From the NCBI GenBank assembly GCA_965220875.1, contig OZ244849.1:585791-649790 (forward strand): a stretch of DNA of 64,000 nt, written 5' to 3'. A program made the translations under genes and the position numbers. The DNA comes from Gammaproteobacteria bacterium. Its GTDB lineage: Bacteria > Pseudomonadota > Gammaproteobacteria > UBA4575. Every line of letters begins with the position of its first letter. Positions within the stretch are counted from its first letter, which is position 1. The notes beneath the pieces are model-generated. The model saw only the letters and a program-made list of their open reading frames with translations. It was not told the origin of the DNA and searched no databases. This document shows, piece by piece, positions 2,910 through 22,791 of the stretch.

Positions 2910-3740
2910 TCACTGCCTCGCTCCCCCGTATGCGCCCTGCAACCCCTGGGGGTGATCGAACACCCCGCCCACTTCCTCGTGGTCAGGACCGTAGAACGCA
3001 CCCGATAACCGGTTGTTGTCGGCATGGTAACGGCTGAACTGCCCGTCCTCTACCGGCATGTTCTCAAAAATCATGTCGGTATAGGCCTGTCCGGTGGTGG
3101 TATTGGCCATGCCCGTCAAATGCACGTCCGCCAATACCTGGGTACCTATGGTCACGGAAATACTGGCATCGCCCGTCACGACGGATTCGAGATCACTTGC
3201 AATATTGTGATCCCTTGCCGTTGCAAAGCCTGTCCAGGTGGCCTCCACCTCGGGATTGGTATTCGTTGCGTTCCCGGCAATGGTGCCGTAGGTTTGGATG
3301 ACCCCCTGGTCCGGGTCAGTTTCATGCTTGTAAAGTACGACTGTCGATGCAAAGAAACTGTATTCCATCCAGCCTCCGTAACTATGCAGGTCATTGAACC
3401 TGCCGATGACATACTCCACCGCCGTATTGATGCTGTTGGTATCCGGCAGCACTATCGTCTCCTCAGGCAATAACCTGAAAACCTTGTTTGCACGCAGGAA
3501 AGCCGTGTAGCCCACGGAACAGAACAGGCCCCTGCATTCCACGGAAACACGTACCGGCTCTGTTTGGCCGGGCACCCAGTTGATCCTGTCCGTGGAAAGC
3601 AGAAGATTGGCATTCGAGGCGATCCGCTCATAGTCCTGTATCGCAACATATTCAGGTGGAGGAACGGGGACATCACTGGACCCCCCGCCCATGCAGCCAG
3701 TGACAAGCATGCACAGTGCGAGCGTGATGCAGTATTTCAT
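2910..3740 (-). CDS. TbpB-family surface lipoprotein (C-lobe-like 8-strand barrel)
   Basis: Lipoprotein signal MKYCITLALCMLVTGC is followed by a GGGSS tether. The C-terminus LSGAFYGPDHEEVGGVF...GAYGGARQ matches the TbpB/LbpB/fHbp barrel motif (GxFYGPxAEExGG...FGAKxQ). Confidence 0.7.
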   Translation of the reverse strand: MKYCITLALCMLVTGCMGGGSSDVPVPPPEYVAIQDYERIASNANLLLSTDRINWVPGQTEPVRVSVECRGLFCSVGYTAFLRANKVFRLLPEETIVLPDTNSINTAVEYVIGRFNDLHSYGGWMEYSFFASTVVLYKHETDPDQGVIQTYGTIAGNATNTNPEVEATWTGFATARDHNIASDLESVVTGDASISVTIGTQVLADVHLTGMANTTTGQAYTDMIFENMPVEDGQFSRYHADNNRLSGAFYGPDHEEVGGVFDHPQGLQGAYGGARQ

Positions 3741-4054
3741 TCCAAAGCCCCCAGAATCCGGAAGCCGAACGGGAAGCCTCAAGCTGAACATCGGTTGGGA
3801 TTACCCTGTTATTATTGAATCGGGTTTCTGTCCACGCAGCATCTTACCAGATTGCAAAACAGACAGGTACGGGTAGTGCTCCCTGATCCCGCCAACGTGA
3901 TTTTGCACGATGCCTGGACCAGGCTGGGAAGAGACGGTCACCCTGTCGTGTACAATCCATGTCGAAACACCGGGTTCTCTCTCGCGGTGTTCGCCTGTCG
4001 CACAAGCCAGGTCGGGACGTTGCCGTAGCGCGGGAAACAAGCAAAGAAAGGCCA

Positions 4055-6201: not shown

Positions 6202-6246
6202 TGTGAAACCGGTTGTTTCTACGCGCGCGATTATGCACCAATTGGA

Positions 6247-7167
6247 TCAGCGTGTCCCCCCGTCCTTCTCATCCCCGTCGTCTTCGGGCTTTTTGAGGGG
6301 TTCGCCTTCGCCCATTTCCTTCGCCTGTTCCTCGGCAGACAGCGGGACCTGGGACGCTTTCTTGCGCCAGGACCGCCTCGGCTTGCGGGCTGGTTTTTCC
6401 CCGGCTGCATCCTCGTCCTCCTCTAGGGACCTGGGCACCCACAGGCGCGACAGCAGCAGGCCGATCTCGAACAGCAGCCATACCGGGATGGCCAGCAGCA
6501 CCTGGGAGATCACGTCCGGCGGTGTCAGCAGCATGCCGACGATGAAGGCCACCACGATCACGTAGGGGCGCTTGGAGGCCAGCTTTTTCGGCGTGGTCAC
6601 GCCCAGCCTGACCAGCACCAGGGTCACTATCGGTACCTCGAACGCAGCCCCGAAGGCGATGAAGATCTTGATCACGAAATCCAGGTAGCGCCCGATGTCC
6701 GTCATCACCGCCACCCCTTCCGGGGCCACCCTCGTGAAGAAGCCGAACACCAGGGGGAAGACGATGAAGTACGCGAAGGCCATGCCCACGTAAAACAGGA
6801 TCGAACTGGACACGAGGAGCGGGAACACCAGCCGCTTTTCGCTGCCGTACAGGCCCGGTGCGACGAAGGCCCAGGCATGGTAGAGGATGATCGGGATGGC
6901 CAGCACGATGCTGAGCAGGAACACGAGCTTGAACGGGGTGAGGAAGGGCGAGGCCACTTCGATCGCCACCATCGAGCTGTCCTCCGGCAGGTGCGCCATC
7001 AGCGGGCCGGCCAGCCAGGCATACAGGGTGTTGGCAAACGGGAACAGGCCCAGCATGACGGCCAGCACGCTGCCCGTCACCCACAGCAGCCGGCTGCGCA
7101 GCTCGAACAGGTGCGACAGTAGGGATTCCTGCTTGGCCTCGGGGTCCCCGGAGTCAGTCGGCTTCAT
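6247..7167 (-). CDS. tatC: twin-arginine translocase subunit TatC
   Basis: N-terminus LLSHLFELRSRLL and six-TM architecture. Downstream of tatA/tatB. Confidence 0.9.
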   Translation of the reverse strand: MKPTDSGDPEAKQESLLSHLFELRSRLLWVTGSVLAVMLGLFPFANTLYAWLAGPLMAHLPEDSSMVAIEVASPFLTPFKLVFLLSIVLAIPIILYHAWAFVAPGLYGSEKRLVFPLLVSSSILFYVGMAFAYFIVFPLVFGFFTRVAPEGVAVMTDIGRYLDFVIKIFIAFGAAFEVPIVTLVLVRLGVTTPKKLASKRPYVIVVAFIVGMLLTPPDVISQVLLAIPVWLLFEIGLLLSRLWVPRSLEEDEDAAGEKPARKPRRSWRKKASQVPLSAEEQAKEMGEGEPLKKPEDDGDEKDGGTR

Positions 7168-7522
7168 TCTTTTCAGGCCCCGGCTTCACCGGTTTTTCCC
7201 TGGCGGATTCGATCTGTTCCTCGACGGCCTTGACCAGCGTGTCATCCCCGTCGTCGTCCAGCTCCTGCTCGATCTCCCGCTGCGTGCCTTTCAGGATTTC
7301 CTTCAGCTCACCGATTTCGTTCTGCTGCTTGTCCAGGATTTCCTTCAGCTCGGCCGCGCGGATCTCGGACTCGATATCCGCACGGAAGGCCTCGAACATG
7401 CGCCGGGCCTTGCCTACCCACCTTCCGGCCTGGCCCGCCAAGCGCGGCAGCTTTTCCGGCCCGACCACCAGCAGCACGACCACCATGATGAGGGTGAGCT
7501 CCCAAAAGCCGAAATCAAACAT
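7154..7522 (-). CDS. tatB: twin-arginine translocase subunit TatB
   Basis: MFDFGFWELTLIMVVVLLVVGPEKLP N-terminus, then an amphipathic helix and an acidic tail. Confidence 0.85.
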   Translation of the reverse strand: MFDFGFWELTLIMVVVLLVVGPEKLPRLAGQAGRWVGKARRMFEAFRADIESEIRAAELKEILDKQQNEIGELKEILKGTQREIEQELDDDGDDTLVKAVEEQIESAREKPVKPGPEKNEAD

Positions 7523-9007: not shown

Positions 9008-9751
9008 TCATGCCTCGCCGGTCGCATCATCCGCCAGCGCCTGGGCCTGTTCCAGCTTGATGGTTCCCTCGTACAGGGCTCGCCCGACGATGACCCCGAC
9101 GATGCCTTCCTCGTCACACTCGCACAGCCTGCGGATGTCGGCCTCGTCGGTGACGCCGCCCGATGCGATCACCGGGATGTGCACGGCGCCTGCAAGCTCT
9201 GCGGTCGACTCGACGTTCAACCCCTGCATCATGCCGTCGCGGCTGATGTCCGTGAACACGATGGCCGCCACCCCGTCGGCCTCGAAATGCTGTGCCATGT
9301 CGATGGCGTCGTGGTGGGACAGCTTGGACCAGCCGTCGATCGCCACCTTGCCGTTGCGCGCATCCAGCCCGACGATGATGTGCCCCGGGAATTCCAAGCA
9401 CAGGTCGTTGACGAAATGCGGGGTGCTGATGGCACGCGTGCCGAGGATCACGTACTGCACGCCGATGTCCAGGTAGTTTTGCACGGTATCCTCGTGGCGG
9501 ATGCCGCCGCCGACCTGGATCGGCAGATCGGGGTGTTTGGAGGCGATGGCCTCGACGATCCCGGCATTCTGCGGAGTGCCTTTGGAAGCTCCGTCCAGGT
9601 CCACGATGTGCAGGCGCCTGGCACCGGCCTCGACCCAGGTGTCCGCGACGCTGACCGGGTCATCGGAGAACACCGTGACATCATCCATGGCACCCTGGCG
9701 GAGGCGCACGCATTTGCCGTCCTTGAGGTCGATGGCTGGAATGACGATCAT
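9008..9751 (-). CDS. hisA: ProFAR isomerase
   Basis: MIVIPAIDLKDGKCVRLRQG. Confidence 0.95.
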   Translation of the reverse strand: MIVIPAIDLKDGKCVRLRQGAMDDVTVFSDDPVSVADTWVEAGARRLHIVDLDGASKGTPQNAGIVEAIASKHPDLPIQVGGGIRHEDTVQNYLDIGVQYVILGTRAISTPHFVNDLCLEFPGHIIVGLDARNGKVAIDGWSKLSHHDAIDMAQHFEADGVAAIVFTDISRDGMMQGLNVESTAELAGAVHIPVIASGGVTDEADIRRLCECDEEGIVGVIVGRALYEGTIKLEQAQALADDATGEA

Positions 9752-9778
9752 CTTCCGGTTCTTCGTATCTGTGCGGCC

Positions 9779-10420
9779 CTATCCGTCCCAGTGCATGAAG
9801 TTGCTGAGCAGCCGGAGACCTGGGTCCGCGCTTTTTTCGGGATGGCACTGCATGGCGAACACGTTGTCCTGCGCGATCACGGAGGCGAACGGGATGCCGT
9901 AGTCGGTCGTGCCTGCAACCAGGTCCGGCCGGGTACACTGCACGAAGTAGCTGTGCACGAAGTAGAAATAGCTGGACTGCGGGATGCCGGCCCAGAGCGG
10001 ATGATCCTGCTCCTGGCGGATGCTGTTCCAGCCCATGTGCGGAATCTTGTAGCGCCCCTCGCCTGCGCCCGCGGATATGTGGTTGCCGAAGTACTTCACC
10101 CTGCCGTCATACAATGCCAGGCATCCGGTGCCTTCATTTTCCTCGCTGTCCTGCATGAGCACCTGCATTCCCATGCAGATCCCCAAGAACGGTTTTTGCC
10201 GGGCCGCCTCCCTCACGGCATCGAACAGGTCCAGTGCATGCAGGGCGCGCATGCAGTCAAGTGCCGCACCCTGACCCGGGAATACCACCTTGTCACTTGT
10301 GGCGATTTCTTCTGGATTCGATGCGACCCGCACGCGGTCTGCAGGCCCCGCAACATGCTCGACCGCCTTTATTACAGAATAAAGGTTTCCTATTCCGTAA
10401 TCAATTATGGCAAGGCGCAT
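9779..10420 (-). CDS. hisH: imidazole glycerol phosphate synthase glutaminase subunit
   Basis: Starts MRLAIIDYGIGNL. The track ORF extends falsely upstream to 10609. Confidence 0.9.
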   Translation of the reverse strand: MRLAIIDYGIGNLYSVIKAVEHVAGPADRVRVASNPEEIATSDKVVFPGQGAALDCMRALHALDLFDAVREAARQKPFLGICMGMQVLMQDSEENEGTGCLALYDGRVKYFGNHISAGAGEGRYKIPHMGWNSIRQEQDHPLWAGIPQSSYFYFVHSYFVQCTRPDLVAGTTDYGIPFASVIAQDNVFAMQCHPEKSADPGLRLLSNFMHWDG

Positions 10421-10469
10421 GGAAGTGACGGTCGGTACACGGGCCTGCTCGCAGGCACAGGAAGCGGGT

Positions 10470-11063
10470 TCAGAGGCTGCCCTTGGTCGACGGGATCTCT
10501 CCTTGCATGCGGGGGTCGTCTGTGACGGCGATGCGCAGTGCACGGCCGAAGGCCTTGAACACGGTCTCGGCGATATGGTGCGAGTTGGACCCCGACAGGT
10601 TGTCCACATGCAGGGTCACGTTCGCATGGTTGACAAATCCCTGGAAGAACTCGTGGATGAGATCGACATCGAAATCGCCCACCCGCGCACGCGGGAACTG
10701 CACCCGAAATTCAAGACCCGGGCGCCCGGAAAAATCAATCACCACCCGGGAAAGCGCTTCGTCCAGCGGGACATAGGCATACCCGTACCGGTAGATGCCC
10801 TGCTTGTCGCCAATGGCCTGTGCAAAGGCTTGCCCCAGCGTGATGCCGACGTCCTCGACGGTATGGTGCGCATCGATTTCCAGGTCCCCCTTGGCATGCA
10901 GGTCAAGATCCAGCCTCCCGTGGCGGGCCACCTGGTCCAGCATGTGCTCGAAAAAGGGCAGACCGGTGTCGAGTTTCGCCTGACCGCTGCCGTCCAGGTT
11001 CAACTGGATCACAACCTGAGTTTCCTTGGTATTGCGTTCAATGCTTGCAGTTCGCGTGCTCAT
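10470..11063 (-). CDS. hisB: imidazoleglycerol-phosphate dehydratase
   Basis: [16 protein letters not shown]...FEHMLDQ. Confidence 0.95.
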
Positions 11064-11113
11064 GGCTGCGGGGTGATCGGGGTTTCAGTTCATGCGTTTT
11101 CGTATCCCGGCGG

Positions 11114-11551
11114 TTACAGCTGCAGCCAGAAGGTCACCGGGCCGTCATTGACCGAGTGCACCTGCATGTGCGCACCGAACACACCGGTCTTCACTCTACC
11201 ATATTTCGACTTCAGGTGGTCTGCAAACCGCTCGAACAGTGCTTTCGCACGTTCGGGGGAAGCCGCCTGCGAGAAGTTCGCACGCAGCCCCTTGCGGGTA
11301 TTGGCGGCCAGCGTGAACTGCGGGACCAGCAGCACCTCGCCCTTGGCCTGTTCGACACCGAGGTTCATGCGGTCTACATCGTCTGCGAAGACCCGGTAGG
11401 CGAGCACCCGCTCGCCCATGCGCACGAGGATGGCCTCGTCGTCCTGCGGCTGCAACGCAACATACACCAGGAGTCCTGAACCGATTGCAGCGACGATTTC
11501 ATTCTCAACACTCACGCTTGCCGAGGCTACGCGTTGCAGCAGCGCGATCAT
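11114..11551 (-). CDS. dtd: D-aminoacyl-tRNA deacylase
   Basis: MIALLQRVASASV...SVNDGPVTFWLQL. Internal start at the Met corresponding to 11551. ATGA overlap with pip. Confidence 0.9.
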   Translation of the reverse strand: MIALLQRVASASVSVENEIVAAIGSGLLVYVALQPQDDEAILVRMGERVLAYRVFADDVDRMNLGVEQAKGEVLLVPQFTLAANTRKGLRANFSQAASPERAKALFERFADHLKSKYGRVKTGVFGAHMQVHSVNDGPVTFWLQL

Positions 11552-12504
11552 GCAACCTCTCCCATGAATTGTTGTGTGGCCCGAATCAGGGCATCGATGA
11601 TTTCGGGTTCGGTTGCAGAGTGCCCCGAGCACGGTGCGACCTTGAGTTCTGATCCGGGCCAAGCCCGGTGCAGCACCCAGGCCTGCTCGATGGGACACAC
11701 CATGTCATAGCGCCCGTGCACGATCACACCGGGAATGCCTTCGAGACGGTGGGCCTCCTCGAGCAGCTGGTTGTCGCGAAGGAAGGAATCGTGCATGAAA
11801 TAGTGGCACTCGATCCTCGCCAGGCTCAGGGCGGTGGGCTCGTGTTCAAAATGATCCAGCACCGAGGGCTTGGTGACCAGGTTGGAGGTAGCACCTTCCC
11901 AGACCGACCAGGCGCGTGCGGCGGCAAGCCGCACATTTGCATCGTTCGAGGTCAGGCGCCGGTAATAGGCACCGACCATGTCGTGGCGTTCACCCTCGGG
12001 GATGATGCGCACGTACTCTTCCCACAGCTCCGGGTGGATCTTGCCCGCACCCTCCTGGTAGAACCACTGGATGTCCTGCCTGCGACACAGGAAGACGCCG
12101 CGCAGGATAAGTCCTGTGACCCGCCCGGGGTACGCCTCGGCATAGGCCAGTCCCAGCGTGGAACCCCACGAGCCGCCGAACACCAGCCACCGGTCGATAC
12201 CCAGATGTTCGCGGATGCGCTCGATGTCGGCGACCAAGTCTTGGGTCGTGTTCTCGCGCAATTCCGCATGCGGGGTGGAACGCCCACAGCTGCGCTGGTC
12301 GAACAGGATAATCCGGTAGTGCTTGGGGTCGAAGAACCTTCGATGAAATGCCTCGCATCCTGCACCCGGCCCGCCATGCAGAAACAAGACGGGGGTGCCG
12401 TCCGGGCTGCCGCATTCCTCGACCCAAAGCGAGTGCAGCCCGGACACCTTTAACATGAACGTTTGGTACGGTTCGATTTCAGGATAAAGGGGCAGGTATT
12501 TCAT
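11548..12504 (-). CDS. pip: proline iminopeptidase (alpha/beta hydrolase)
   Basis: MKYLPLYPEIEPYQ...GGSWGSTL nucleophile elbow. Confidence 0.85.
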   Translation of the reverse strand: MKYLPLYPEIEPYQTFMLKVSGLHSLWVEECGSPDGTPVLFLHGGPGAGCEAFHRRFFDPKHYRIILFDQRSCGRSTPHAELRENTTQDLVADIERIREHLGIDRWLVFGGSWGSTLGLAYAEAYPGRVTGLILRGVFLCRRQDIQWFYQEGAGKIHPELWEEYVRIIPEGERHDMVGAYYRRLTSNDANVRLAAARAWSVWEGATSNLVTKPSVLDHFEHEPTALSLARIECHYFMHDSFLRDNQLLEEAHRLEGIPGVIVHGRYDMVCPIEQAWVLHRAWPGSELKVAPCSGHSATEPEIIDALIRATQQFMGEVA

Positions 12505-13349
12505 GACTGAATTTTGGGAGGAGTGTTGACCAATGTTTCCCGAGTGTGAATCGCTGAAAGTATACCGCAGCATACCCGTTGATCTGTCCGGATACTGATG
12601 TGCCTTTAATGCTCTCAAATCGTATGTGTGATTACTTTTACATTTCATAACACCCTGCTACAGAATTTGAAGATTCGCGGGTGTCGTGTCCGGTTTCTTT
12701 TTTGACTGACTGGTCATGACGCCTGATATTCCACCGACAATAGACTCAAGCTATGGACACGATAGCTAATACCTGTTCCTGAATGTCGATCCCGTCTACA
12801 TTACCCAGACATCGTTGACGTACCGAATGCTGACCAGTGCATGGTGTTCTGTTACCTCTTCAGCCGCAACCTGTCTGCAACCACTGGCAAGCATTCAGTG
12901 ACAGTAGCTTTCATCGTCTTCCCAGGTGCTAATTTCATTCCTTGTCCTGAAATTTCCATGCATTTCAATTGTGTAAACAGCCGTTGTCGTTCTTTGCAAG
13001 GTTTCTTAAAAGGAATGATGACGAATGGATTCATAGTGCCGGTAAGCTGTGATATGATGTATCTACCTTGTCTACAGGTTGGAGGAGCAGCACATGGGTG
13101 TTGCGTTCATGCAACGAGGCATGCCCATAAACCCGCCCGGAATGACACTAATAGCGTGTTTTATAAGCGGTTTGTTTCAGGAAACTTTCACAAAAAAGTT
13201 GTTGCAGTCTGTTTGGAGACCATGTAGATTTGGCATAAAATCATACAGGCACGCTTATCGTTTGATGCAAGTCAGGCGAGAGTGTGTATGCTTTTACTAA
13301 CGTTAGGTTAAATTCAAGGCCTATTATTTTAGGAAGGGAGCTTCGAAAG

Positions 13350-15122
13350 ATGTCTACACTATCTAAGAAATTGGTGGCGCTTTTCGCGGTCATCATATTT
13401 TCCATGGCGATGTATGGATGCGGCGGCGGCGGCAGTAGCGGCCCTGCGACAATGACGCCGACTGAACCGACTGAGCCAACTGAACCGACTGAACCGACTG
13501 AACATACTGTTGACATAGGTGGTCTCACAGTTGCAGCTGGTGAATATGAAGTTCCGGCAGGCGGCACTCTTGATGTGGGAGAGGGTGAAACCGAGGTTAC
13601 GCTTTCATGCCCAGGGGATACAGCCTGTACAGTAACAGTAGCAGATGACGGTACCGCCACTTCAACCGGTGGCGCAGTCACTGCGGCATTGTCAGCAGCT
13701 GCCATGCAAGCCATTGCTGATCGGGAAGAAGCAGAGAGAATGGCTGCTGTAGAAGCTGCTACTAAAGCGGCTGGAACGAAGAGAATGGCCATCGCGGCCG
13801 AGGCAGCGCAATCGGCTGATGCCGGTCTTGGTGGCAGTGACCATGTGAATACAGACGGCACACCTGGCAATGCAGATGATCCTTATAGCTTGGCTATCAC
13901 CCGTGACAGGGATGGAACAGAGATCAAGATTACTGATCACGGGATGACGGGCGATGATGATCCGAAGTTCACACAGGCCATGGATTTAGGTGGCGGACGC
14001 ACCATGCACACGCGCGCGATGGAAGCCGATGACGAAGGTAATGTTGAGGATGAAGTCGTGATCGTCAGCACTGACATTGAAGGGCCCAAAGGGGTAGCGT
14101 TCGCGATGTGGCAGAATGCAGCTGGCGATACGCCTCAAACACTGGCCGTCAGCAGCGTCACCGGCTCAGCTGCCGATACGGCAGCAGGCCAGACTAACAA
14201 TGCTCTGACTATCGCGGAGGACACAACTCTTACCGGAGATGCGAATACAAATCTGATGTTTGCGCGCTCCACCACGGATGGAGCTCTCAACTACACCGTC
14301 AACGACACGAGTACCGCGGGTACGGATGAGGCTTTGCACGACGGCACCTATAACGGGGCTGAGGGTACATATCGCTGCACCGGTACTACAATTTGCACCG
14401 TCACCTTCAACGACAAGGGTATGGTTGTTGGCAACACTGGTGGTTGGGTCTTCGTTCCAGATAAGGGCGCCACCTCAGACCAGCCGGACTACGACTACCT
14501 GCACTACGGCGTCTGGCTCAAGAGGACCACCGATAAAGATGGTGCAGTTACTTACAACGAGGTCGAGACCTTTGCTGGTTCATCGCTTGCTGCTTCCGAC
14601 GGGAGCGAGCTCAACTCAGTCGAAGGTAGTGCGTCGTACGAAGGTGGTGCCACGGGCGTGTATGTACACGAAGTGCGTAATCCGGACGGCACGGAAGCAT
14701 CAGCCACTTTCGGCCACTTTACTGCGGATGTCTCACTGACGGCGTATTTCGCTCAGACTGGAGATAACCCTGAAACAACAGGCGTCACCGAAGCGGGGAC
14801 TGTCGCGCCGAACTTGCTCAACACCGTCAGTGGCTCGATCAACAACTTCATGTTATCTGGGGGAGAAGCCAACACGTGGTCGGTAACCGTACAGGCCAGC
14901 CGTGCAGGTAGTGCAAACACTTTCTCCGGTACGGCCAAGGGCGGATCGCCCAGCAACGATGGGTCGATTAGCGGAACTTACCACGGCCCAACGCCTGAGA
15001 CTACGGCTACTAATGACCCTACAACTGCCAGAACGGCTCCGGGTTCGATGGTCGGCGAGTTCAATTCCTTCTTCACCAACGGCTCTGTAGCCGGTGCCTT
15101 CGGGGCGAGAAAGGACGAATGA
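13350..15122 (+). CDS. large TbpB-family surface lipoprotein with PTE repeats (candidate Slam substrate)
   Basis: Good SD (AGGAAGGGAG). Signal MSTLSKKLVALFAVIIFSMAMYGC, then a GGGGSSG tether and (PTE)x5. An internal duplicated motif CPGDTACTVTVADDG / CTGTTICTVTFNDKG. C-terminus GTYHGP...SVAGAFGARKDE is the TbpB-like barrel ending. Confidence 0.7.
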   Translation: MSTLSKKLVALFAVIIFSMAMYGCGGGGSSGPATMTPTEPTEPTEPTEPTEHTVDIGGLTVAAGEYEVPAGGTLDVGEGETEVTLSCPGDTACTVTVADDGTATSTGGAVTAALSAAAMQAIADREEAERMAAVEAATKAAGTKRMAIAAEAAQSADAGLGGSDHVNTDGTPGNADDPYSLAITRDRDGTEIKITDHGMTGDDDPKFTQAMDLGGGRTMHTRAMEADDEGNVEDEVVIVSTDIEGPKGVAFAMWQNAAGDTPQTLAVSSVTGSAADTAAGQTNNALTIAEDTTLTGDANTNLMFARSTTDGALNYTVNDTSTAGTDEALHDGTYNGAEGTYRCTGTTICTVTFNDKGMVVGNTGGWVFVPDKGATSDQPDYDYLHYGVWLKRTTDKDGAVTYNEVETFAGSSLAASDGSELNSVEGSASYEGGATGVYVHEVRNPDGTEASATFGHFTADVSLTAYFAQTGDNPETTGVTEAGTVAPNLLNTVSGSINNFMLSGGEANTWSVTVQASRAGSANTFSGTAKGGSPSNDGSISGTYHGPTPETTATNDPTTARTAPGSMVGEFNSFFTNGSVAGAFGARKDE

Positions 15123-15161
15123 TCGTTTGAAGATAGGCTGACTTCTTACTCAAGCTCCCAA

Positions 15162-15196
15162 AAGAGGGTGGCAGATTTGCCACCCTCTTTTTTTTG
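15162..15196 (+). terminator. rho-independent terminator after the lipoprotein gene
   Basis: AAAGAGGGTGGCAGATTTGCCACCCTCTTTTTTTT: a perfect 11-bp stem followed by a T-run, 40 bp after the stop. Confidence 0.55.
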
Positions 15197-15441
15197 CTCG
15201 GCAAAAAATTGGAGCCCTGTCCGAATGGTACCCCTGATCAGATGCGGCAGACAATGACATCCAGACGAAACTTCAGTCACAATGTCCCTTCCCCTGAAAC
15301 GGAAAACTATCTCCCCCTTAGAACCAACCCGTCGTTCACACATACAACAATTCAGTCTTACATGTGTAAGAAGCACACATATGCGTTGATTCATGACATG
15401 TGAACTGACCGGATACGGTTGGCAAAGGTTTTCCATCGAGG

Positions 15442-16062
15442 TCATCCAGTCCAGAGCGCAGTGAGGACAGAAGTAGTTGTAGAAGTGCTATCCGGCCAGT
15501 GCGGGTGCGCATCCCAGACGGTGAGGCGGACGGGACAGAGGTTCCAGAACTCGGTTCTTGAGTTGTCGTTAGCCCGTTCGATAATGCCGTTGATCTGTGG
15601 GCTTTTCGGTAGCAGCACGGCTAGCGGGAGGTCGAACACTTCACAGGTAGCCTTGAAGTCCGCCCGGAACTCATTGCCGTCGACCTGGACCGAGCGTAGC
15701 GGATACGGCAGGTCTTCACGGACGGCCTCAAGAAAGCGTCTGGTGTTGCGGGCCATAACCTGAGAATAGACCCGTGTCGCCATCTGTTTCCCGACGGAAC
15801 AGGTGCCTTGACTTCTTTCAGTGTGTTACCCTCGCGCAAGACCGACATGTGATCGATCTGCGCCAGTTCGCCCAGGGTGCGTGCCTTTGCACCGTACTTC
15901 CAGTTGTACAGGCTGCTCTAGGGCGCCGGCCTCGCTGCTGCCTGGAGCCCGAAGCTGGTTATAGGCTTGCAGGGTGCGGTGGCGCTCGACCGCAAACTCG
16001 GCAACGGCTTCGACCACCTTGAAGCTTTTGTACGATTGAACGCGAAGCGATTTAATATGCAT
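15442..16062 (-). mobile_element. degraded IS481-like (rve/DDE) transposase, frameshifted fragments
   Basis: Fragment 15783..15442 has FLEAVRED...VQVDGNEF...PKSPQINGIIERANDNSRTEFWN, matching the rve TDNGxEF and SPQxNGxxER motifs. Fragment 16062..15826 has HRTLQAYNQLRAP, similar to the YNxxRPH C-terminal motif. Fragments are broken by an in-frame stop and are out of order, so this is a relic. Confidence 0.55.
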
Positions 16063-16452
16063 GGCTGGGTCTCTTCCTTGTGAACGGCTTACTCATTGAA
16101 GGCTACCCGATCCGGTGCAGAGGGGGAAATACCCCTGCACCACCTCATTCAAGACAACGGCCCATCTCCGCTGAAAAGTGCCAAAGCTGAACCTGTACAG
16201 AAATCCTGTTCAGATCTCGTTTTCCCTGTATCATTCTGCAAACAGGATCACAAGTGTGTCAAAAGTTGAATAAGCTGTAGCAGACCAGTGCTGTCCGGCT
16301 TGCTCCTTGATTGAAGGAAACCCAATCACAAAAATAGATTATTATGAATGTACAAACAGAGACAGCCAAGTTCTGCCTGAGTCCGGAATCAGCGTGTCCT
16401 GTATAAGTGTTGAATTCACTTCTACATCTTCGTTTCTCAGGTCCCATGACTT

Positions 16453-17817
16453 ATGAAAAAAATACCGGTTAGCCGCTTTCTTGTATCCATCACTCTGCTG
16501 TCGCTGTCGGCTATGGGGACTGCATTTGCCAGCAGCGCAGAACTTCAGCCATCGCACGCAGATGAAAGCAAGGCCCGGGCACTGCTCAATAACCGGCAAT
16601 TTGACGAGGCTCTGACAATTTTACGCCCCCTGGCAAAAGCACATCCCGAGCACATCAACCTTCACTTCCTGCTCGGTCTGGCTGCCATCGAACGCTCCCG
16701 CCTGGCACAAACTTCGAAGGAAGAGCAGGAAGCCCTGCTGGATGAAGCCATTGCCACCCTGCACAGGCTACTGGTCAATCATCCAAAGCTTGAACGCGTA
16801 CGGCTTGAGCTCGCCCGTGCATTCTTCTACAAGAAAGAGGATTCCCTGTCGCGCAAGCATTTCAAGCGGGTGCTGGCTGGAGATCCACCGCCCCCCGTGG
16901 CGGAAAATATCCAGCGCTTCCTCAACGAAATCCGGGCCAGAAAGCGCTGGTCGGTGTATCTCGGCAGCACGCTCAAGCCCAGCTCCAACATCGGCCGAAA
17001 TTCCGAGACCGAGATCATCAACATTTTCGGTCTGCCCTTTCGCCGCGATGAGGTTGAAAAGAAGAAATCAGGGGTCGGTCTTTCTGTCTGGGCCGGTGGC
17101 GGCTACTGGCATCCCCTGGCCGAGCGCCTTCGGCTTCGCTTTGGCACCGATCTCGCCCGCGAGGAATACCCGGGAAAAGAGGAGGACCAGTCCTTCCTGG
17201 GAGTACACGCCGGCCCTGAATGGCTCGTCAATGCAAGAACCAGTGTCAGCCTGCTCGCCGATGCGCGGCATCTCTGGCGCATCACCTCACCCTATTACCT
17301 TGACTTCGGGGTACGCTCGGAAATCAAGCACCGGGTGAACCGGCGCCTCTGGCTGAAAGGGCAGGCCTCCTGGCATGACCGCGACTACCGGAAGCTCGAC
17401 TACCTGGATGGCTCGACCATGAATCTATCGTTGAACGGGACCTGGATCGCCTTGCCCACCGTGCGACTGGAGGGTGCCCTTGGCTATGCCGATGAGCACA
17501 CGAAATCCAAGACCTGGCGCCATGACACCCGCTGGGGCCGTATCGGCACGCTGGTGGCCCTGCCACGCGGCTTTACCGTGGGCGGCAGTGCCGAGATTCG
17601 AAGAACCCGCTACGAGGGGAACTGGTTCCCATTTACCAGCGGCGTCCCCCGCAAGGATCGCACCAATATCTATCGCGCCTCGGTATACAACCGGGCTTTC
17701 ACGCTGTACGGGTTCAGCCCTCAATTCGTGATCACCCACGAGGAAAAGGATACCAACTCGCAGGTCTACGGCTATGACAGCACCGGCGGCGAGATACGGT
17801 TCGTGCGCCAGTTCTAG
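16453..17817 (+). CDS. TPR plus DUF560-like outer-membrane beta-barrel; putative Slam surface-lipoprotein translocon
   Basis: 454 aa. Sec signal (MKKIPVSRFLVSITLLSLSAMGTAFA), about 150 aa of TPR-like helices, then about 300 aa with alternating beta-strand character ending in an aromatic C-terminus (RFVRQF). The size and architecture match Slam, and the gene sits next to a TbpB-like lipoprotein. DUF560 membership was not checked by HMM. Confidence 0.65.
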   Translation: MKKIPVSRFLVSITLLSLSAMGTAFASSAELQPSHADESKARALLNNRQFDEALTILRPLAKAHPEHINLHFLLGLAAIERSRLAQTSKEEQEALLDEAIATLHRLLVNHPKLERVRLELARAFFYKKEDSLSRKHFKRVLAGDPPPPVAENIQRFLNEIRARKRWSVYLGSTLKPSSNIGRNSETEIINIFGLPFRRDEVEKKKSGVGLSVWAGGGYWHPLAERLRLRFGTDLAREEYPGKEEDQSFLGVHAGPEWLVNARTSVSLLADARHLWRITSPYYLDFGVRSEIKHRVNRRLWLKGQASWHDRDYRKLDYLDGSTMNLSLNGTWIALPTVRLEGALGYADEHTKSKTWRHDTRWGRIGTLVALPRGFTVGGSAEIRRTRYEGNWFPFTSGVPRKDRTNIYRASVYNRAFTLYGFSPQFVITHEEKDTNSQVYGYDSTGGEIRFVRQF

Positions 17818-17897
17818 AATCCAGACCCGGCGCATACAAGCCCCGAGGCTGACCCTTTGCTTCCAGCCTCCCAGTCATAAATCGTCCCGCCCTGTTT

Positions 17898-18479
17898 TCA
17901 GCGCCTCTGTGCCACCAGCCAGGCCGTATCCCGCACGCCCTGGCCGGTATCCCCGACGCGGCCCAGTTCCCGGTAGGCCAGTACATGCAGCGGTGCGAAC
18001 AGTTCCAGCAACTCGTTGGCACCCAGCCGGTATGCAGGATTGCTTGGACCCTCATCGGAGACCTTTTCATGAATGAAGGTCTGGTAGTACAGCAAACCAT
18101 TTGGCCTCAATGCCTCGGTGATCGCACCGCACAGCCCGCGCTCCAGGTAAAAACTGATACAGATCACATCGAAGGTGCCCGGTGCAGGCGGGGATTCCTG
18201 CACGTCTCGAACCTCAGTCTGTAGGCAAAGCCCCTCGGACTCGGCCTTGCGTGCAAGGGTCTCGATCGCCTCCCCGGAGATGTCCCAGGCATGCGCATGC
18301 AGCCCCCGCCGGGCCAGGAACAGCGCATTGCCGCCGCGCCCGCAGGCCAGATCCAGGGCCGTGCCGGTTTCAGGCAACAGGAAGGTGTATTCCCTCAAGA
18401 CCGCGCACGCGCCCGGCTTTCCCGCGGGGGCCTCCCTGTACCTCCGGTTCCACTTCCCGCGGGCCTGCTCATCGGCCAT
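17898..18479 (-). CDS. SAM-dependent methyltransferase (TehB-like)
   Basis: LDLACGRGGNALFLA motif I, 193 aa. Confidence 0.7.
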   Translation of the reverse strand: MADEQARGKWNRRYREAPAGKPGACAVLREYTFLLPETGTALDLACGRGGNALFLARRGLHAHAWDISGEAIETLARKAESEGLCLQTEVRDVQESPPAPGTFDVICISFYLERGLCGAITEALRPNGLLYYQTFIHEKVSDEGPSNPAYRLGANELLELFAPLHVLAYRELGRVGDTGQGVRDTAWLVAQRR

Positions 18480-18488
18480 GACCGGTCC

Positions 18489-19940
18489 CTACCTGCGCCA
18501 GAACGCGGGGGTCAGCACCACCAGCAGGGTGAAGATCTCGAGGCGCCCCAGCAGCATGGCCAGGCACAGGATCCACTTGCTCAGGGCATTGATGCCGGTG
18601 TAGTTCGCACCCACCTCGCCCAGGCCCGGGCCCAGGTTGTTGAGGGTGGCGGCCACCGCGGAGAAGGCCGTGACCTCGTCGAGCCCCGTGGCCATGAGCA
18701 GCAGGATCATGAACATGAAGATGGCGATGTAGGCAAAGAAGAATCCCCACACCGCCTGCATCACTCGCCCGTCCACGGGCCGGGGCCCGATCTTCACCGC
18801 GATCTTCGCGCTCGGGTGGATCAGGCGCATCATCTCCCGCATGCCCTGCTTGAACAGCAGCAGCACGCGGATCACCTTGAGCCCGCCGCCGGTCGAGCCC
18901 GCACAGCCCCCGATGAAACTTGCAAACAGCAGCAGCCACGGCAGGAAGCCCGGCCACAGGTGGAACTGCGACGTGGTGAAACCCGTGGTGGTGCCGATCG
19001 ACACCGCGTGGAAGACGGCCTTGCCGAAGGCGTGATCCCACACGGGATAGACCTGCGCGAGGCGCAGGAACAGGAATGCGATCAAGGTGATCGCTAGCAG
19101 CACCAGGACGTAGGTCCTGAATTCCGCATCCTGCAGGTAGTGGCGCACCTTGAGGGACTTCCAGGTGATGAAATGCAGCCCGAAGTTGGCCCCCGCCAGC
19201 AGCATGAACACGATCGCGATCGTCTCGATCGCGGCACTGTTGAAATAGCCGAGGCTCGCATCGTGCGTGGAAAACCCGCCGATGGCCACGGTGGAGAAGC
19301 TGTGCGAGACCGCATCGAAGAGGCTCATGCCGGCCAGCCAGTAGCTGAACGCGCAGATCACGGTCAGCAGCAGGTAGATGAACCACAGCGCCTTGGCCGT
19401 CTCCTTGATGCGCGGCGTCAGCCGGTTGTCCTTGACCGGCCCCGGGGTCTCAGCCTGGTACAGCTGCATGCCGCCGACGCCGAGCATCGGCAGGATCGCC
19501 ACGGCCAGCACGATCAGTCCCATGCCCCCCAGCCACTGCAGGGTCTGGCGGTAGAACAGGATCGACCGCGGCAGGGTGTCGAGCTGGGTGATGACGGTGG
19601 CACCGGTCGTGGTCAGCCCGGAGATGGACTCGAACACCGCATCGGTGAGGCCGAGTGCGAGTGGCTTGCTGAACAGGAAAGGCAGCGCCCCGAAGCTGCC
19701 GAGCACGGTCCAGAACAGGACCACCACCAGGAACCCGTCCCGAAGGTGCATGTCGTCCCGTGAGTCGCGCACCGGGTACCACAGGGCCAGCGCGCAGGCC
19801 AGGGTGATGAGCACGGAGAGCACGAACGGAACCGCCGACTCGTCCGGGTAGAGCAGGGTCACCGCGATCGGGGGCAGCATGGTGAGGCTGAACCCCCCCA
19901 GCAGGATGCCCAGTATTCGCTGTACGACCTGTCGCTGCAT
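18489..19940 (-). CDS. trkH: Trk potassium uptake membrane subunit
   Basis: 483 aa polytopic protein with repeated TrkH pore-loop GGxS motifs. Confidence 0.9.
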   Translation of the reverse strand: MQRQVVQRILGILLGGFSLTMLPPIAVTLLYPDESAVPFVLSVLITLACALALWYPVRDSRDDMHLRDGFLVVVLFWTVLGSFGALPFLFSKPLALGLTDAVFESISGLTTTGATVITQLDTLPRSILFYRQTLQWLGGMGLIVLAVAILPMLGVGGMQLYQAETPGPVKDNRLTPRIKETAKALWFIYLLLTVICAFSYWLAGMSLFDAVSHSFSTVAIGGFSTHDASLGYFNSAAIETIAIVFMLLAGANFGLHFITWKSLKVRHYLQDAEFRTYVLVLLAITLIAFLFLRLAQVYPVWDHAFGKAVFHAVSIGTTTGFTTSQFHLWPGFLPWLLLFASFIGGCAGSTGGGLKVIRVLLLFKQGMREMMRLIHPSAKIAVKIGPRPVDGRVMQAVWGFFFAYIAIFMFMILLLMATGLDEVTAFSAVAATLNNLGPGLGEVGANYTGINALSKWILCLAMLLGRLEIFTLLVVLTPAFWRR

Positions 19941-19974
19941 GTGCGCCTGCCTGAAATCAGTGCCGGTACGGACC

Positions 19975-21348
19975 CTAGACGAACGTGGCGCTCACCTGGA
20001 AGAGCTTTTCCGCTTCCTTGATCCCGCCCTTGTCGGCCAGGAACACGATCACGTGGTCCTCGGACTCGATCACCAGGTCCTCGTCGGCCAGGATCATCTC
20101 GCCGCCGCGCGCGATGGCGCCGATGGTGGCCCCTTTCGGCAGGTCGATCTCCCCGATCCTGCGCCCGACCACCTTCGAGGTGTGCTTGTCGCCGTGGGCG
20201 ATGGCCTCGATGGCCTCCGCAGCCCCCCGGCGCAGCGAGTGCACCGCCACCACGTCGCCCTTGCGCACGTGCGCCAGCAGCGTGCCGAGCGTGATGTGAT
20301 GTGGCGAGATCGCCACGTCGATGTCGTGGCTTTCCACCAGGTCCACGTAGCTCGGGCGGTTGATCAGCGTCATGACCTTTTTCGCCCCCCGGCGCTTGGC
20401 CAGCATGGCCGACAGGATGTTGGCCGCATCGTCGTTGGTGAGCGCGCAGAAGACGTCGGTGTCCTGGATGTTCTCCTGCAGCAGCATGTCCTCGTCGGCC
20501 GCGTCCCCCTGCAGCACGATGGCCTTGTTCAGCGATTCGGACAGGAACTTCGCGCGGGCCGGGTTGTGTTCGATGATCTTGAGCTGGTACCGGTTCTCCA
20601 GCGACACCGCCAGATGGAACCCGATGTTGCCGCCGCCGGCCAGCACGACGCGCCGGTACCGCCTGCGCGAGCGGTGCAGCTGCGTCGTCAGGTCCACCGA
20701 GTCCCGGGCCGAGGTGAGGAAGAACACCTCGTCCCCGGTGTTGAACACGGTCGTGTCCTCGGCCGGGATCGGCCGGTTGTCCCGGTACACGGCGACCACC
20801 CGGGCCTCGACCTCCGGCACCAGCTCCCAGATGTCCTTCAGCTGCTTGCCGTGCATGGTTTTTCCCGCGCGCATCACCAGCAGCTTGATCTGGCCACCGA
20901 CGAAATCCCGCACCTGCAGGGAGTTGGGGTGTTCGATCAGTTTCTGGATGGATTGCGAGATCAGGTATTCCGGGCTGATCAGCACGTCCACCGGCAGCGC
21001 CTCCTGCACGAACAGGTTGTTGTACCCGAAATAGTCCACCGCGCGCACGCGCGCGATCTTGGTGGGGGTGTGGAACAGCGAGTAGGCGACCTGGCAGGCG
21101 ACCATGTTGGTCTCGTCGCTGTCGGTCAGCGCGATCACCATGTCGGCATCCTGCGCCCCGGCATGCTCCAGCACGGTGGGATGCGAGGCCTCGCCGACCA
21201 GGGTGCGCAAATCGGCCCGCCCCTGGATCTCGCGCAAGACCCGCGGATCGTAATCCACCAGGGTGATGTCATGCGCCTCGTTCGCCAGGCTCAGCGCCAG
21301 CGAGGAGCCGACCTGGCCGGCCCCCAGAATGATTATCTTCATAGCCAC
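19975..21348 (-). CDS. trkA: Trk system NAD-binding subunit
   Basis: MKIIILGAGQVGSSLA plus a second Rossmann domain (VVLAGGGNIG). Confidence 0.9.
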   Translation of the reverse strand: MAMKIIILGAGQVGSSLALSLANEAHDITLVDYDPRVLREIQGRADLRTLVGEASHPTVLEHAGAQDADMVIALTDSDETNMVACQVAYSLFHTPTKIARVRAVDYFGYNNLFVQEALPVDVLISPEYLISQSIQKLIEHPNSLQVRDFVGGQIKLLVMRAGKTMHGKQLKDIWELVPEVEARVVAVYRDNRPIPAEDTTVFNTGDEVFFLTSARDSVDLTTQLHRSRRRYRRVVLAGGGNIGFHLAVSLENRYQLKIIEHNPARAKFLSESLNKAIVLQGDAADEDMLLQENIQDTDVFCALTNDDAANILSAMLAKRRGAKKVMTLINRPSYVDLVESHDIDVAISPHHITLGTLLAHVRKGDVVAVHSLRRGAAEAIEAIAHGDKHTSKVVGRRIGEIDLPKGATIGAIARGGEMILADEDLVIESEDHVIVFLADKGGIKEAEKLFQVSATFV

Positions 21349-21432
21349 GCCTCATCTGCCCGAACCTGCGGACAGGTGGTTTGCAGGCGGGCAAGCATAG
21401 GGGAAGTGCCGCCGCCGGGCAAGGGTTTTTCC

Positions 21433-22791
21433 TCAGGGTTCCTTGGGAGTGATCCCGAGGGCGCGCAGCTTGCGGTACAGGTGAGTGCGTTCCAGGCCCA
21501 CCCTCCTCGACAGCTTGCTGATATTGCCCTCCACCAGCCGCAGCTGGTGCAGCAGGTAGTCCCGTTCGAACGATTCGCGGGCCTCGCGCAGGGGCAGCTG
21601 GTAGAGACGTTGCCGCCAGGTCGCCTCAGGCCCTTCCTGCGGGGCGTTCTCGTCCAGGGCGGCCTCGACTTCCCTGACCGAGATTTCGTCCGAAATACCC
21701 AGGATGAGCAGCCTCTGGACCAGGTTGCCCAGTTCCCGCACGTTGCCGGGCCAGTCGTAGTGCAGCAGCAGGTTCTGCGCGGCGATGGAGAACTTCCGGT
21801 AGGGGTAGTTTTCCCGCGTGCAGTAGAGGTCGGTGAAATGGTGCAGCAGCCCGGGCACGTCCTTCAGGTGTTCACGAAGCGCCGGCACGTGGATCGGCAC
21901 GGCGTTCAGTTGGAAATACAGGGTGGCGTCGAAGCGCCCGGCCTGGACCTCGGTCTGCAGGTTGCACCGGGTCGTCACCATGATGCGCGACTCGAGACTC
22001 TGCTGCCCCTGCCCCCCGATGCGGCTGTACTGCCCGCGCTCGAGCAGCCTCGACAGGATCTTCTGGTCCTGCACGGGGATGCTGGCCACGCCGTCCACCA
22101 GTACCGTGCCGCCGCGGCACTGCTCCAGGATCCCGGGGGTCACGGCCCCGTCCGATTCGCTTCCGAACAGCTCCCGTGCCAGCCCCCTGTCACTGAAGTC
22201 GCCCTCGCTCAGGACGATGAACTCGTGCCCATGGCGTGCGCTGACGGCATGCACGTAGCGGGCGAAGGTTTTCTTGCCGGCGCCGCTTTCCCCCGCGATC
22301 AGCACGACGTTGTCATGCTGGGCCAGTTTCCGGGCCTGTTCGCGAAGGGTCCGCATCTGCACGCTCATGCCGACCGGCTCCTCGACCACGAAGCGCTTGC
22401 GGGTCTGCTGCATCCTTTCCTGGGAATGCTCGAGTGCATCGCGCACGCTCGCCAGCAGCTTGGCCGTGGTCAGGGGTTTTTCGATGAACCCGTAGGCCCC
22501 CAGGCGGGTCGCCTCGACGGCCGTCTCCACGGTGCCGTGCCCGGACATCATGACCACCGGGCAGTCTATGTCCTGGTTGCCCTGCCAGTCCTTCAGCAGG
22601 CTGATCCCGTCCTCGCCGGGCATCCAGATATCGAGCAGCACCAGGTCGGGCGGCTCGGCATGGGCATGCTGGCGTGCCGCGGCCGTGTTCTCGGCCACCT
22701 GCACCGCGTAGCCCTCGTCAACCAGGATTTCCTGCACCAGGTTGCGGATGGCGGGCTCGTCGTCGACGATCAGGATGCTTTCCCGGCTCAT
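21433..22791 (-). CDS. ntrX: NtrC-family response regulator NtrX
   Basis: REC domain (ILIVDDEP...DLVLLDIWMP), an AAA+ module with variant Walker A GESGAGKK and a degenerate GAFTGA, and a C-terminal HTH. Paired with ntrY. Confidence 0.8.
   Translation of the reverse strand: MSRESILIVDDEPAIRNLVQEILVDEGYAVQVAENTAAARQHAHAEPPDLVLLDIWMPGEDGISLLKDWQGNQDIDCPVVMMSGHGTVETAVEATRLGAYGFIEKPLTTAKLLASVRDALEHSQERMQQTRKRFVVEEPVGMSVQMRTLREQARKLAQHDNVVLIAGESGAGKKTFARYVHAVSARHGHEFIVLSEGDFSDRGLARELFGSESDGAVTPGILEQCRGGTVLVDGVASIPVQDQKILSRLLERGQYSRIGGQGQQSLESRIMVTTRCNLQTEVQAGRFDATLYFQLNAVPIHVPALREHLKDVPGLLHHFTDLYCTRENYPYRKFSIAAQNLLLHYDWPGNVRELGNLVQRLLILGISDEISVREVEAALDENAPQEGPEATWRQRLYQLPLREARESFERDYLLHQLRLVEGNISKLSRRVGLERTHLYRKLRALGITPKEP

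Follow-up and report, generated by a model that had tools for sequence, protein, structure and literature searches.

We analyzed a 64-kb stretch of DNA from a gammaproteobacterial genome (contig OZ244849.1; "the window" below means this whole stretch) and found that it carries a gene for a surface lipoprotein (SLP) and, downstream on the same strand, a gene for the outer-membrane translocon Slam (surface lipoprotein assembly modifier). We consider it likely that this locus is a Slam, or type 11 secretion system (T11SS), module whose lipoprotein is a cargo exported to the cell surface, and that the body of the lipoprotein is subject to recombination; the lipoprotein may bind a ligand of the host or the environment. 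The two genes and their parts are as follows.

13350-15122, plus strand: surface lipoprotein, predicted Slam cargo, 590 aa, intact open reading frame (ORF)
13350-13421, plus strand: lipoprotein signal peptide and lipobox, to Cys24 (13419-13421), MSTLSKKLVALFAVIIFSMAMYGC
13458-13503, plus strand: 9-nt tandem repeat, 5.1 copies, encoding the (PTE)5 linker (Tandem Repeats Finder)
14628-15113, plus strand: predicted 8-stranded beta-barrel at the C-terminus (aa 427-588); DSSP finds eight long strands in the model
16453-17817, plus strand: Slam/T11SS outer-membrane protein, 454 aa, PF04575
16555-16941, plus strand: Slam TPR helices, aa 35-163 (model and Pfam)
16948-17814, plus strand: Slam 14-stranded barrel, aa 166-454 (model and PF04575)

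The downstream gene encodes a Slam translocon

We found that 16453-17817 encodes a Slam/T11SS outer-membrane protein. The protein matches the Pfam family SlipAM (PF04575, formerly DUF560) with an E-value of 4.9e-22; the score is 79.2 bits, where the cut-off is 22, and the match spans residues 166-454, corresponding to profile positions 1-288 of 288. This confirms the Slam/DUF560 identity that a sequence-only reading of the window had proposed. The TPR domain expected by that reading is also there: TPR_16 (6.4e-9) and TPR_14 (8.1e-8) are both over cut-off, while TPR_Slam (PF24575) scores 27.4 bits, below its cut-off of 35.2. The ORF for a 454-aa protein with TPR, barrel and an aromatic end lies where it had been placed, and its last residue is F; the protein begins MKKIPVSRFLVSITLLSLSAMGTAFA/SS and finishes ...RFVRQF, and its signal peptide and terminal aromatic residue are read directly from these letters. 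In an AlphaFold2 model built with 50 homologues (predicted local distance difference test, pLDDT, 78.5), there are 7 helices at 35-163 and 14 long strands at 166-453, and pLDDT in the barrel is mostly 80-97. Together with the eight strands in the C-terminal domain of the lipoprotein model, these are the barrel counts that had been predicted. The best solved fold is the 14-stranded OmpG, with a template modelling (TM) score of 0.66 (no solved Slam chain is among the PDB matches), and the next matches are the TPR-plus-barrel exporters PelB, BcsC and PgaA. A protein 96% identical to this one carries the NCBI name 'surface lipoprotein assembly modifier'. The sequence and fold features of a Slam are thus present, namely PF04575, a TPR domain, a 14-stranded barrel, a signal peptide and a terminal aromatic residue. 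Because the ratio of nonsynonymous to synonymous divergence (dN/dS) is 0.19 in comparison with the closest syntenic relative (L001), we regard it as a working Slam gene.

The upstream gene encodes a lipoprotein with a predicted TbpB-type fold

The lipoprotein N-terminus is MSTLSKKLVALFAVIIFSMAMYG-C24-GGGGSS, with a lipobox ...FSMAMYG/C24GGGGSS, so that the 590-aa ORF and its Cys-polyGly tether are exactly as first described. The lipoprotein signal peptide ends in a lipobox cysteine, Cys24, which is kept in at least 90% of 61 aligned family members. It is followed by a Gly/Ser tether, the (PTE)5 linker, N-terminal domains, a handle and the barrel. An AlphaFold2 model (pLDDT 87.7, predicted TM score 0.79) delimits the parts in front of the barrel as follows.

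aa 51-114: small beta domain
aa 116-153: long helix
aa 180-315: beta-rich region
aa 329-411: handle

In this model, the 8-stranded C-terminal barrel stands behind the beta handle. The sequence-only reading had seen no recognisable N-lobe; it was right in that no fold is assignable to the N-terminal domains, and wrong in that the model has ordered domains there (51-114, 116-153 and 180-315).

When we compared the model with the PDB using Foldseek, the top 12 matches were all TbpB, with 98-184 residues aligned. The fold matches also include LbpB, HpuA and haemophilins, and integral 8-stranded membrane barrels (NspA, PagL, OmpW) score below the TbpB matches. The TbpB-type C-terminal barrel proposed earlier is therefore right at the level of the fold. 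At the level of sequence, no Pfam family matched the lipoprotein even at E 10, and the PF01298 match that had been expected on 13350-15122 is accordingly absent. There was a noise-level NCBIfam match only, and phmmer against PDB sequences was empty. One of the 61 homologues reaches PF01298, at E 3.7e-4, and a profile of the 61-homologue family hit no TbpB, fHbp or NHBA chain among PDB sequences. The answer to the family question came from structure comparison alone, the sequence searches all being empty: as modelled, the lipoprotein has a TbpB-type fold but belongs by sequence neither to TbpB_B_D (PF01298) nor to the fHbp C-terminal domain (Lipoprotein C; IPR014902). Searches with TbpB or fHbp domains miss this lipoprotein family because the fold is common but the sequence similarity is undetectable.

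The most conserved block of the family comprises the last two strands, P..VGEFN..F.NGSVAGAFGA[RK], at the end of the barrel, with invariant columns at P564, G569, E570, F571, F575, G578, G582 and G585. This block is probably the region of the lipoprotein that Slam recognises, since it is the best-conserved block of the family and the published Slam model places a 'specificity motif' at the C-terminus of the cargo (PMC9090332). Some family members contain tandem handle-plus-barrel modules: there are 18 stretches matching profile positions ~316-565 in P0325 (1532 aa), 7 in P0359 (883 aa) and 5 in P0367 (723 aa). Searching the window by tblastn for further copies of the lipoprotein and Slam gave none.

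The lipoprotein family is linked to Slam in several phyla

A word-indexed search gave 522 lipoprotein homologues; searched exhaustively with a profile, the representatives of clusters at 50% identity yielded 858 with E <= 1e-30 and 2672 with E <= 1e-10. Almost none of the homologues has a Pfam domain, and the few that are named are called 'hypothetical protein'. Scanning species-representative genomes, we collected 72 lipoprotein loci, all from metagenome-assembled genomes (MAGs), labelled Gamma-, Alpha- and Deltaproteobacteria, Nitrospirales, Nitrospinota, Binatia and Thermodesulfobacteriota, with a few short contigs labelled Chloroflexi or Acidimicrobiia; the last two (3-6 kb contigs, maybe binning errors) were not counted as spread.

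We searched these loci for Slam with a hidden Markov model built on the Slam alignment. Slam is found within 6 kb in 44 of the 72 loci. Of the 59 in which 2 kb or more of sequence follows the lipoprotein gene, 35 have Slam as the next gene on that strand (median ORF gap ~125 nt). The window has the same order of lipoprotein and Slam, here with a 1.3-kb spacer between them. Adjacency occurs in loci of Nitrospirota, Nitrospinota and Thermodesulfobacteriota, Nitrospira contigs included, and in one Nitrospira contig precomputed Pfam annotation independently calls the neighbour of the lipoprotein SlipAM. As the adjacency is also present on complete MAG chromosomes of Nitrospirales (2.26 Mb) and Thermodesulfobacteriota (5.0 Mb), it is not a binning artefact there. 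None of three Binatia loci has a directly adjacent Slam and two have one within 6 kb; on a 4.3-Mb Binatia chromosome, Slam is at most 6 kb from one lipoprotein copy, not directly adjacent to it. A gene order kept this often in different phyla is strong evidence that the two are related as cargo and translocon.

Those source samples that could be traced are sponge metagenomes, for several loci via sample labels (ROBB21, ENGE20) or a paper: SB06xx bins are given as sponge-associated (PMC7883664), and sponge species are enumerated in PMC8163846. In a Deltaproteobacteria MAG from a sponge sample (L008/L009; 6193-7611, 11042-11620), the lipoprotein gene has a tyrosine integrase on one side, a DDE transposase on the other and no Slam nearby. 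Across the family, tyrosine integrases adjoin members in roughly 12 loci; the count is not 17, as a single-linkage cluster had drawn in antisense shadow ORFs of pip. Ankyrin-repeat genes stand a few kb upstream in 13 loci (L011, L025, L029, L037, L044, L049, L053, L058, L068, L070, L071, L075 and L077), often with a DUF169 gene alongside. These 13 are not independent, because many look like the conserved synteny of one lineage.

Proposed export route, function and alternatives

By analogy with the published Slam pathway (PMC9090332, PMC5449769), the 590-aa precursor would be exported by Sec, lipidated at Cys24 and moved to the outer membrane by Lol, with a periplasmic holdase keeping it unfolded. 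Slam would recognise the conserved C-terminal barrel strands, and the lipoprotein would be threaded through the 14-stranded barrel, fold outside and be held there by its lipid and the Gly/Ser-(PTE)5 linker. Once exposed, the lipoprotein may most likely bind a host or environmental ligand, as an adhesin or evasin does, and a role as accessory of a TonB-dependent iron receptor seems less likely. We favour an interaction with host or environment because no linked TonB receptor was detected, the family is multi-copy and variable, several sources are sponges, and integrases, a DDE transposase and ankyrin-repeat genes are among the neighbours. BLASTP with the receptor of L005, a single and moderately sensitive query, detected no TonB-dependent receptor at any of the 72 loci out to 6 kb, and none was noted among the window ORFs examined (1-20.5 kb). 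Within that scope, the window does not show the bipartite arrangement of the TbpA/TbpB type, in which the receptor gene is beside the lipoprotein gene.

Two features of the spacer between lipoprotein and Slam bear on how the pair is expressed.

15160-15191, plus strand: intrinsic terminator of the lipoprotein gene, 14-bp stem then T run, conserved in L001 and L005
15442-15783, minus strand: insertion sequence (IS) fragment, IS481-family transposase (NF033577, E 4.7e-10, profile positions 163-245 of 284)

Given a terminator after the lipoprotein, the two genes are probably transcribed separately or by read-through.

Several observations weigh against a functional export module as we propose it. 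The lipoprotein is without a sequence-level match to a known cargo domain, and its assignment as cargo combines a predicted structure with gene order. An adjacent Slam is missing from 24 of the 59 loci whose downstream sequence is long enough to show one. A sponge-only distribution would, for part of the loci, be read from the names of bins and the labels of samples. The two genes are kept apart by a strong terminator and an IS relic and are not obviously co-transcribed, and in a consensus promoter scan the stretch immediately before Slam (16063-16452) gave no promoter on the plus strand. Finally, the test for a TonB receptor used a single query with a 6-kb reach, and L005 carries a receptor ~4.6 kb past Slam.

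The last point also speaks for the alternative that survives best, in which the lipoprotein is an accessory of nutrient capture, of the kind of TbpB/TbpA, HpuA/HpuB or a haemophore, and feeds a TonB-dependent receptor encoded elsewhere. The best folds do include TbpB, LbpB, HpuA and haemophilins, and the L005 gene (Plug/TonB_dep_Rec) lies downstream of Slam, beyond trkH and trkA. We nevertheless think this explanation unlikely: fHbp, NHBA and PmSLP have the same fold yet bind host proteins, many variable paralogues per genome would be unusual for a receptor of a single ligand, and a TonB-dependent receptor appears neither in the 72 loci (6 kb, BLASTP, one query) nor among the recurrent neighbours.

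It is also conceivable, with a very low probability in our estimate, that the adjacency is historical, the IS and the terminator having uncoupled the pair, and that the lipoprotein stays on the periplasmic face of the outer membrane. The 14-bp-stem terminator, the IS481 relic and the missing consensus promoter in 16063-16452 would fit such a history. However, the window and L001 each have both ORFs intact although the two share the IS relic, which is therefore old; dN/dS is 0.19 for Slam and 0.24 for the lipoprotein; and L005, a locus free of the IS, carries the terminator as well. Known Slams, such as Neisseria Slam1, serve unlinked cargo genes, so that separate transcription is normal for Slam systems.

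The lipoprotein body has been replaced within an old locus

We judged synteny from relatives of the window. The order pip-lipoprotein-Slam-methyltransferase-trkH-trkA recurs in five of them, with Slam identities of 96% (L001), 77% (L005 and L030), 76% (L072, Thiotrichales-labelled) and 65% (L034). The features concerned in the window are the following.

11548-12648, minus strand: pip (Abhydrolase_1), upstream flank
13449-15048, plus strand: replaceable lipoprotein body, aligning with L001 in patches at 66-70%
17898-18479, minus strand: class I methyltransferase, downstream flank, with trkH then trkA beyond

Because this synteny extends down to 65% Slam identity, the pair was not recently inserted and the locus is old, which corrects the claim of the sequence-only reading that the pair was horizontally acquired as an island. 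A recent genomic island can be rejected, as five relatives share the gene order and there is no tRNA or mobility gene at a border: a tRNA scan of the window found none, and the sole mobility gene at the locus is the decayed IS fragment inside the lipoprotein-Slam spacer.

The drop in composition between pip and the methyltransferase is real. The mean G+C content (GC) of the window is 0.617 and that of the flanking genes 0.60-0.68, against 0.445 in the pip-lipoprotein spacer (12649-13349; down to 0.42 in 400-bp windows). In the spacer parts 15123-15441 and 16063-16452 it is 0.467 each, and in the ORFs 0.558 (lipoprotein) and 0.588 (Slam). At the 1-kb scale, 12-17 kb is the deepest dip of the whole window. 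GC at third codon positions (GC3) is 0.54 in the lipoprotein, 0.71 in Slam, 0.75 in pip, 0.83 in gpmI and 0.93 in both trkH and trkA. The departure in GC and codon usage that had been predicted across 12-18 kb therefore applies to the lipoprotein, and Slam is near-native; only the lipoprotein body looks foreign in composition. In 68 related loci, lipoprotein GC3 is below that of the adjacent Slam in almost all (for example 0.54 vs 0.81 and 0.69 vs 0.93). One shared foreign GC pool for the lipoproteins is too simple an explanation, as their GC partly follows the host genome (correlation with flanking GC across related loci, r = 0.62 for the lipoprotein and 0.88 for Slam).

When we aligned the DNA with L001, we found that 9008-13448 and 15049-21500 are ~92% identical, AT-rich spacer and IS relic included, and that divergence begins and ends sharply at 13449 and 15048. 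Lipoprotein residues 1-33, which span the signal peptide, the lipobox and the tether, match those of L001 exactly (dN = 0), and the remainder is ~55% identical. Nei-Gojobori estimates against L001 are as follows.

Lipoprotein: dS 1.45, dN/dS 0.24
Slam: dS 0.10, dN/dS 0.19
trkH: dS 0.11, dN/dS 0.12
trkA: dS 0.13, dN/dS 0.14
hisB: dS 0.20, dN/dS 0.22
Methyltransferase: dS 0.31, dN/dS 0.25
pip: dS 0.34, dN/dS 0.15

Since dS of the lipoprotein is saturated while purifying selection is ordinary, its body appears to have been replaced by an anciently diverged allele or paralogue. The window lipoprotein is 51-53% identical to the syntenic copies (L001, L005), 56-60% to Nitrospirales proteins, 58% to a Defluviicoccus protein and 68-75% to non-syntenic paralogues in the genome of L005. 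Slam identity tracks relatedness, with 96, 77 and 65% within the lineage and 41-54% in other scanned loci. A contig with a 100%-identical Slam (P0121) points the same way, its best lipoprotein match having 78% identity over 75% of the length.

A similar mosaic is found among three paralogues of one genome, CBDBDH01 (L010, L012 and L013), which have no Slam within 6 kb. Their DNA is 88-90% identical from about -300 to +103, with near-identical signal peptides (MKSTDKFVLVLVASLFLL...), and 91-94% identical in the last strands and ~330 nt downstream; the middles are 73-83% identical or unalignable. In the window the break points coincide with the best-conserved blocks of the family, and these blocks could plausibly serve as homology arms. 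In L072, the syntenic lipoprotein gene (5686-7299) is broken into three ORFs, probably a pseudogene or an assembly error, and one of its segments is 85% identical to the window protein, closer than the intact syntenic copies.

Taken together, these comparisons argue firmly for a lipoprotein body exchanged by recombination and a Slam inherited vertically. In such a scheme, Slam would pass down the lineage together with both ends of the lipoprotein gene: the 5' end comprises the leader and the part encoding signal peptide and tether, and the 3' end the part encoding the final two strands of the barrel, with the terminator. The body between these ends would be swapped by homologous recombination with a multi-copy family shared across phyla in uncultured genomes, often of sponge origin. 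The alternative of in-place diversification, by positive selection or by a targeted mutator such as a diversity-generating retroelement, could account for the ~45-49% protein difference from the syntenic copy in a relative with 96% Slam identity, but is hardly tenable given the sharp limits at 13449 and 15048, nearest relatives that are non-syntenic paralogues and proteins of other phyla, and no reverse transcriptase noticed among the 10-20.5 kb ORFs (no dedicated search), and the saturated dS (1.45) with a dN/dS of 0.24, not above 1, leads us to reject in-place hypermutation or such a retroelement.

Leader, IS relic and other features of the spacers and flanks

Upstream of the lipoprotein gene we distinguished two features.

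12649-13349, plus strand: AT-rich pip-lipoprotein spacer, GC 0.445, 87% identical to L001 over its whole length
13160-13349, plus strand: promoter/leader region, ~190 nt, with invariant Shine-Dalgarno and start context GGGAGCTTCGAAAGATG

Within the spacer only 13160-13360 is conserved (73-80% at the nucleotide level) across the five syntenic gammaproteobacterial relatives, and the coding body is not. Because it is as conserved as the coding flanks, the leader is probably regulatory. A possible promoter in it consists of a candidate -35 element TTGCAG, 17 nt and a candidate -10 element TAGATT. A small hairpin (CGTTTGA...TCAGGCG) shows two compensatory changes; in the consensus fold of the leader the pairs are mostly invariant and so are without real covariation evidence, and a long-range pairing predicted between TGTAGAT and the codons that follow ATG involves invariant positions only, for which covariation speaks neither for nor against. 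Rfam gave nothing meaningful over 12400-17900. The listed pip ORF has 366 aa, compared with 316-318 aa for pip as called in relatives; its true start is probably near 12504, and the AT-rich spacer would then be ~140 nt longer.

Two frameshifted rve-transposase fragments had been reported in the lipoprotein-Slam spacer. One of them is verified as the IS481 fragment (against Pfam rve_3 it reaches only E 0.029), and the second matches nothing: ORFs 15621-15848 and 15826-16062 have no NCBIfam match, and 15826-16062 also has no Pfam match and no protein match in plasmid records. A nucleotide search with 15442-15848 against plasmids found nothing, and no intact copy of the IS is present in the window or in 81 loci. 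Since the relic is in L001 and not in L005, where the spacer is 550 bp, the IS entered after the L005 split and before the L001 split. After the terminator, there is a conserved non-coding block (15200-15380): L005 is 84% identical over 15051-15256, and in the distant L034 the block is ~60-70% conserved in all six frames, i.e., at the nucleotide level. Possibly it is what remains of the original promoter or leader of Slam, moved away by the IS insertion.

A milder low-GC stretch lies at 43000-53000 of the window (0.53-0.59). Its content is ordinary metabolic genes, among them a fatty-acid desaturase, a branched-chain amino-acid ABC transporter, an alpha/beta hydrolase, a luciferase-like monooxygenase and a glyoxalase.

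A second, smaller lipoprotein

The window contains one further lipoprotein of a similar kind.

2910-3743, minus strand: small TbpB-like lipoprotein, 277 aa, ~13 kb from Slam, MKYCITLALCMLVTGC-MGGGSS

Here the PF01298 match that had been anticipated (on 2910-3740) comes close and stays under the cut-off (25.0 vs 26 bits, aa 226-276), and about half of the 61 homologues of this protein have a precomputed PF01298 match. Its GC3 is 0.67, and BLASTP between the two lipoproteins of the window finds similarity in the tether only. Because three paralogues (86, 63 and 59%) occur on one 2.045-Mb contig, which carries a 100%-identical Slam, this family looks multi-copy and variable too. The small lipoprotein is possibly a second cargo, served in trans.

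Comparison with known systems

The module is of a known kind, a T11SS, and its translocon had already been named by automated annotation. The Neisseria Slam system, reportedly described by Hooda et al. in 2016 and 2017 and by Huynh et al. in 2022, is alike in its translocons Slam1 and Slam2 (for TbpB, LbpB, fHbp and HpuA), which combine TPR with a 14-stranded DUF560/SlipAM barrel, and in its cargo, a lipoprotein with a handle and an 8-stranded C-terminal barrel whose gene is beside Slam and varies between strains. In contrast to the Neisseria cargoes, the window cargo is without sequence similarity to TbpB_B_D or the fHbp C domain, has extra N-terminal domains and shows no nearby TonB-dependent partner in the search described above. 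Further differences are the several paralogues per genome with homogenised ends and the organisms, which are uncultured and often hosted by sponges, not vertebrate pathogens. Xenorhabdus NilB/NilC and Pasteurella PmSLP/fIbp, cargoes for host colonisation and complement evasion, are unrelated to the window lipoprotein in sequence and N-terminal architecture.

Variable lipoproteins of Borrelia (Vsp/Vlp) and Mycoplasma (Vlp/Vsa) have a near-identical 5' leader and signal peptide, conserved 3' ends and divergent bodies. The paralogue mosaic described here is similar and consistent with recombination-driven replacement; the likeness seen here lies in this mosaic, and fold, export route and organisms differ.

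Among the close published counterparts are the T11SS cargoes predicted by Grossman et al. 2025, which are Pls-like, have a disordered N-terminus or, in Sphingomonas and Psychrobacter, have PT or PTD repeats (PMC12282271). Both sets share a layout of variable N-terminal effector, beta 'pedestal' and C-terminal 8-stranded barrel, a Pro-Thr-rich repeat linker behind the lipid anchor and mobile elements that are often nearby, and some members of our family likewise have a long alpha-helix before the handle. However, those cargoes were found by BLASTP to known cargo domains, whereas the window family has no PF01298 and no PDB match by sequence, and that survey covered Proteobacteria only (PMC12282271), whereas the window family stands beside Slam also in Nitrospirota, Nitrospinota and Thermodesulfobacteriota. 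In three surveys, T11SS was treated as proteobacterial (PMC5449769, PMC8406197, PMC12282271). Classical secretion systems were few in a large sponge-microbiome survey, which says nothing of lipoproteins (PMC8163846), and in the literature searched there was no link of sponge symbionts to Slam, T11SS or TbpB-like lipoproteins. What we did not meet in that literature is a cargo family of known fold without sequence similarity to known cargo domains, a cargo-Slam pairing outside Proteobacteria, and a mosaic, recombining, multi-copy organisation.

A broader reading, which we offer tentatively and with the odds leaning somewhat against it, is that the family is specific to sponges and perhaps other marine invertebrates, has spread with Slam beyond Proteobacteria, and forms an exchangeable coat that governs host recognition or escape from phages. 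There are at least 858 clusters (50% identity, E <= 1e-30), and the family would have spread to Nitrospirota, Nitrospinota, Thermodesulfobacteriota and Binatia. If the reading is true, recombination between paralogues and across lineages would keep the family diverse, escape from phagocytosis and attachment to the mesohyl would be examples of what the coat does, and type 11 secretion would be a main route of surface display in symbionts reported to be poor in classical secretion systems. Work on T11SS has so far dealt almost only with vertebrate pathogens and nematode symbionts; the order of cargo then Slam, which recurs under the labels Nitrospirales, Nitrospinota and Thermodesulfobacteriota both on contigs and on complete MAG chromosomes, points to a wider host range. 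The lipoprotein family could become a Pfam-style model, and for the field of sponge microbiomes the locus, a mobile cargo on a fixed translocon, is a testable candidate for how symbionts display variable proteins to their host.

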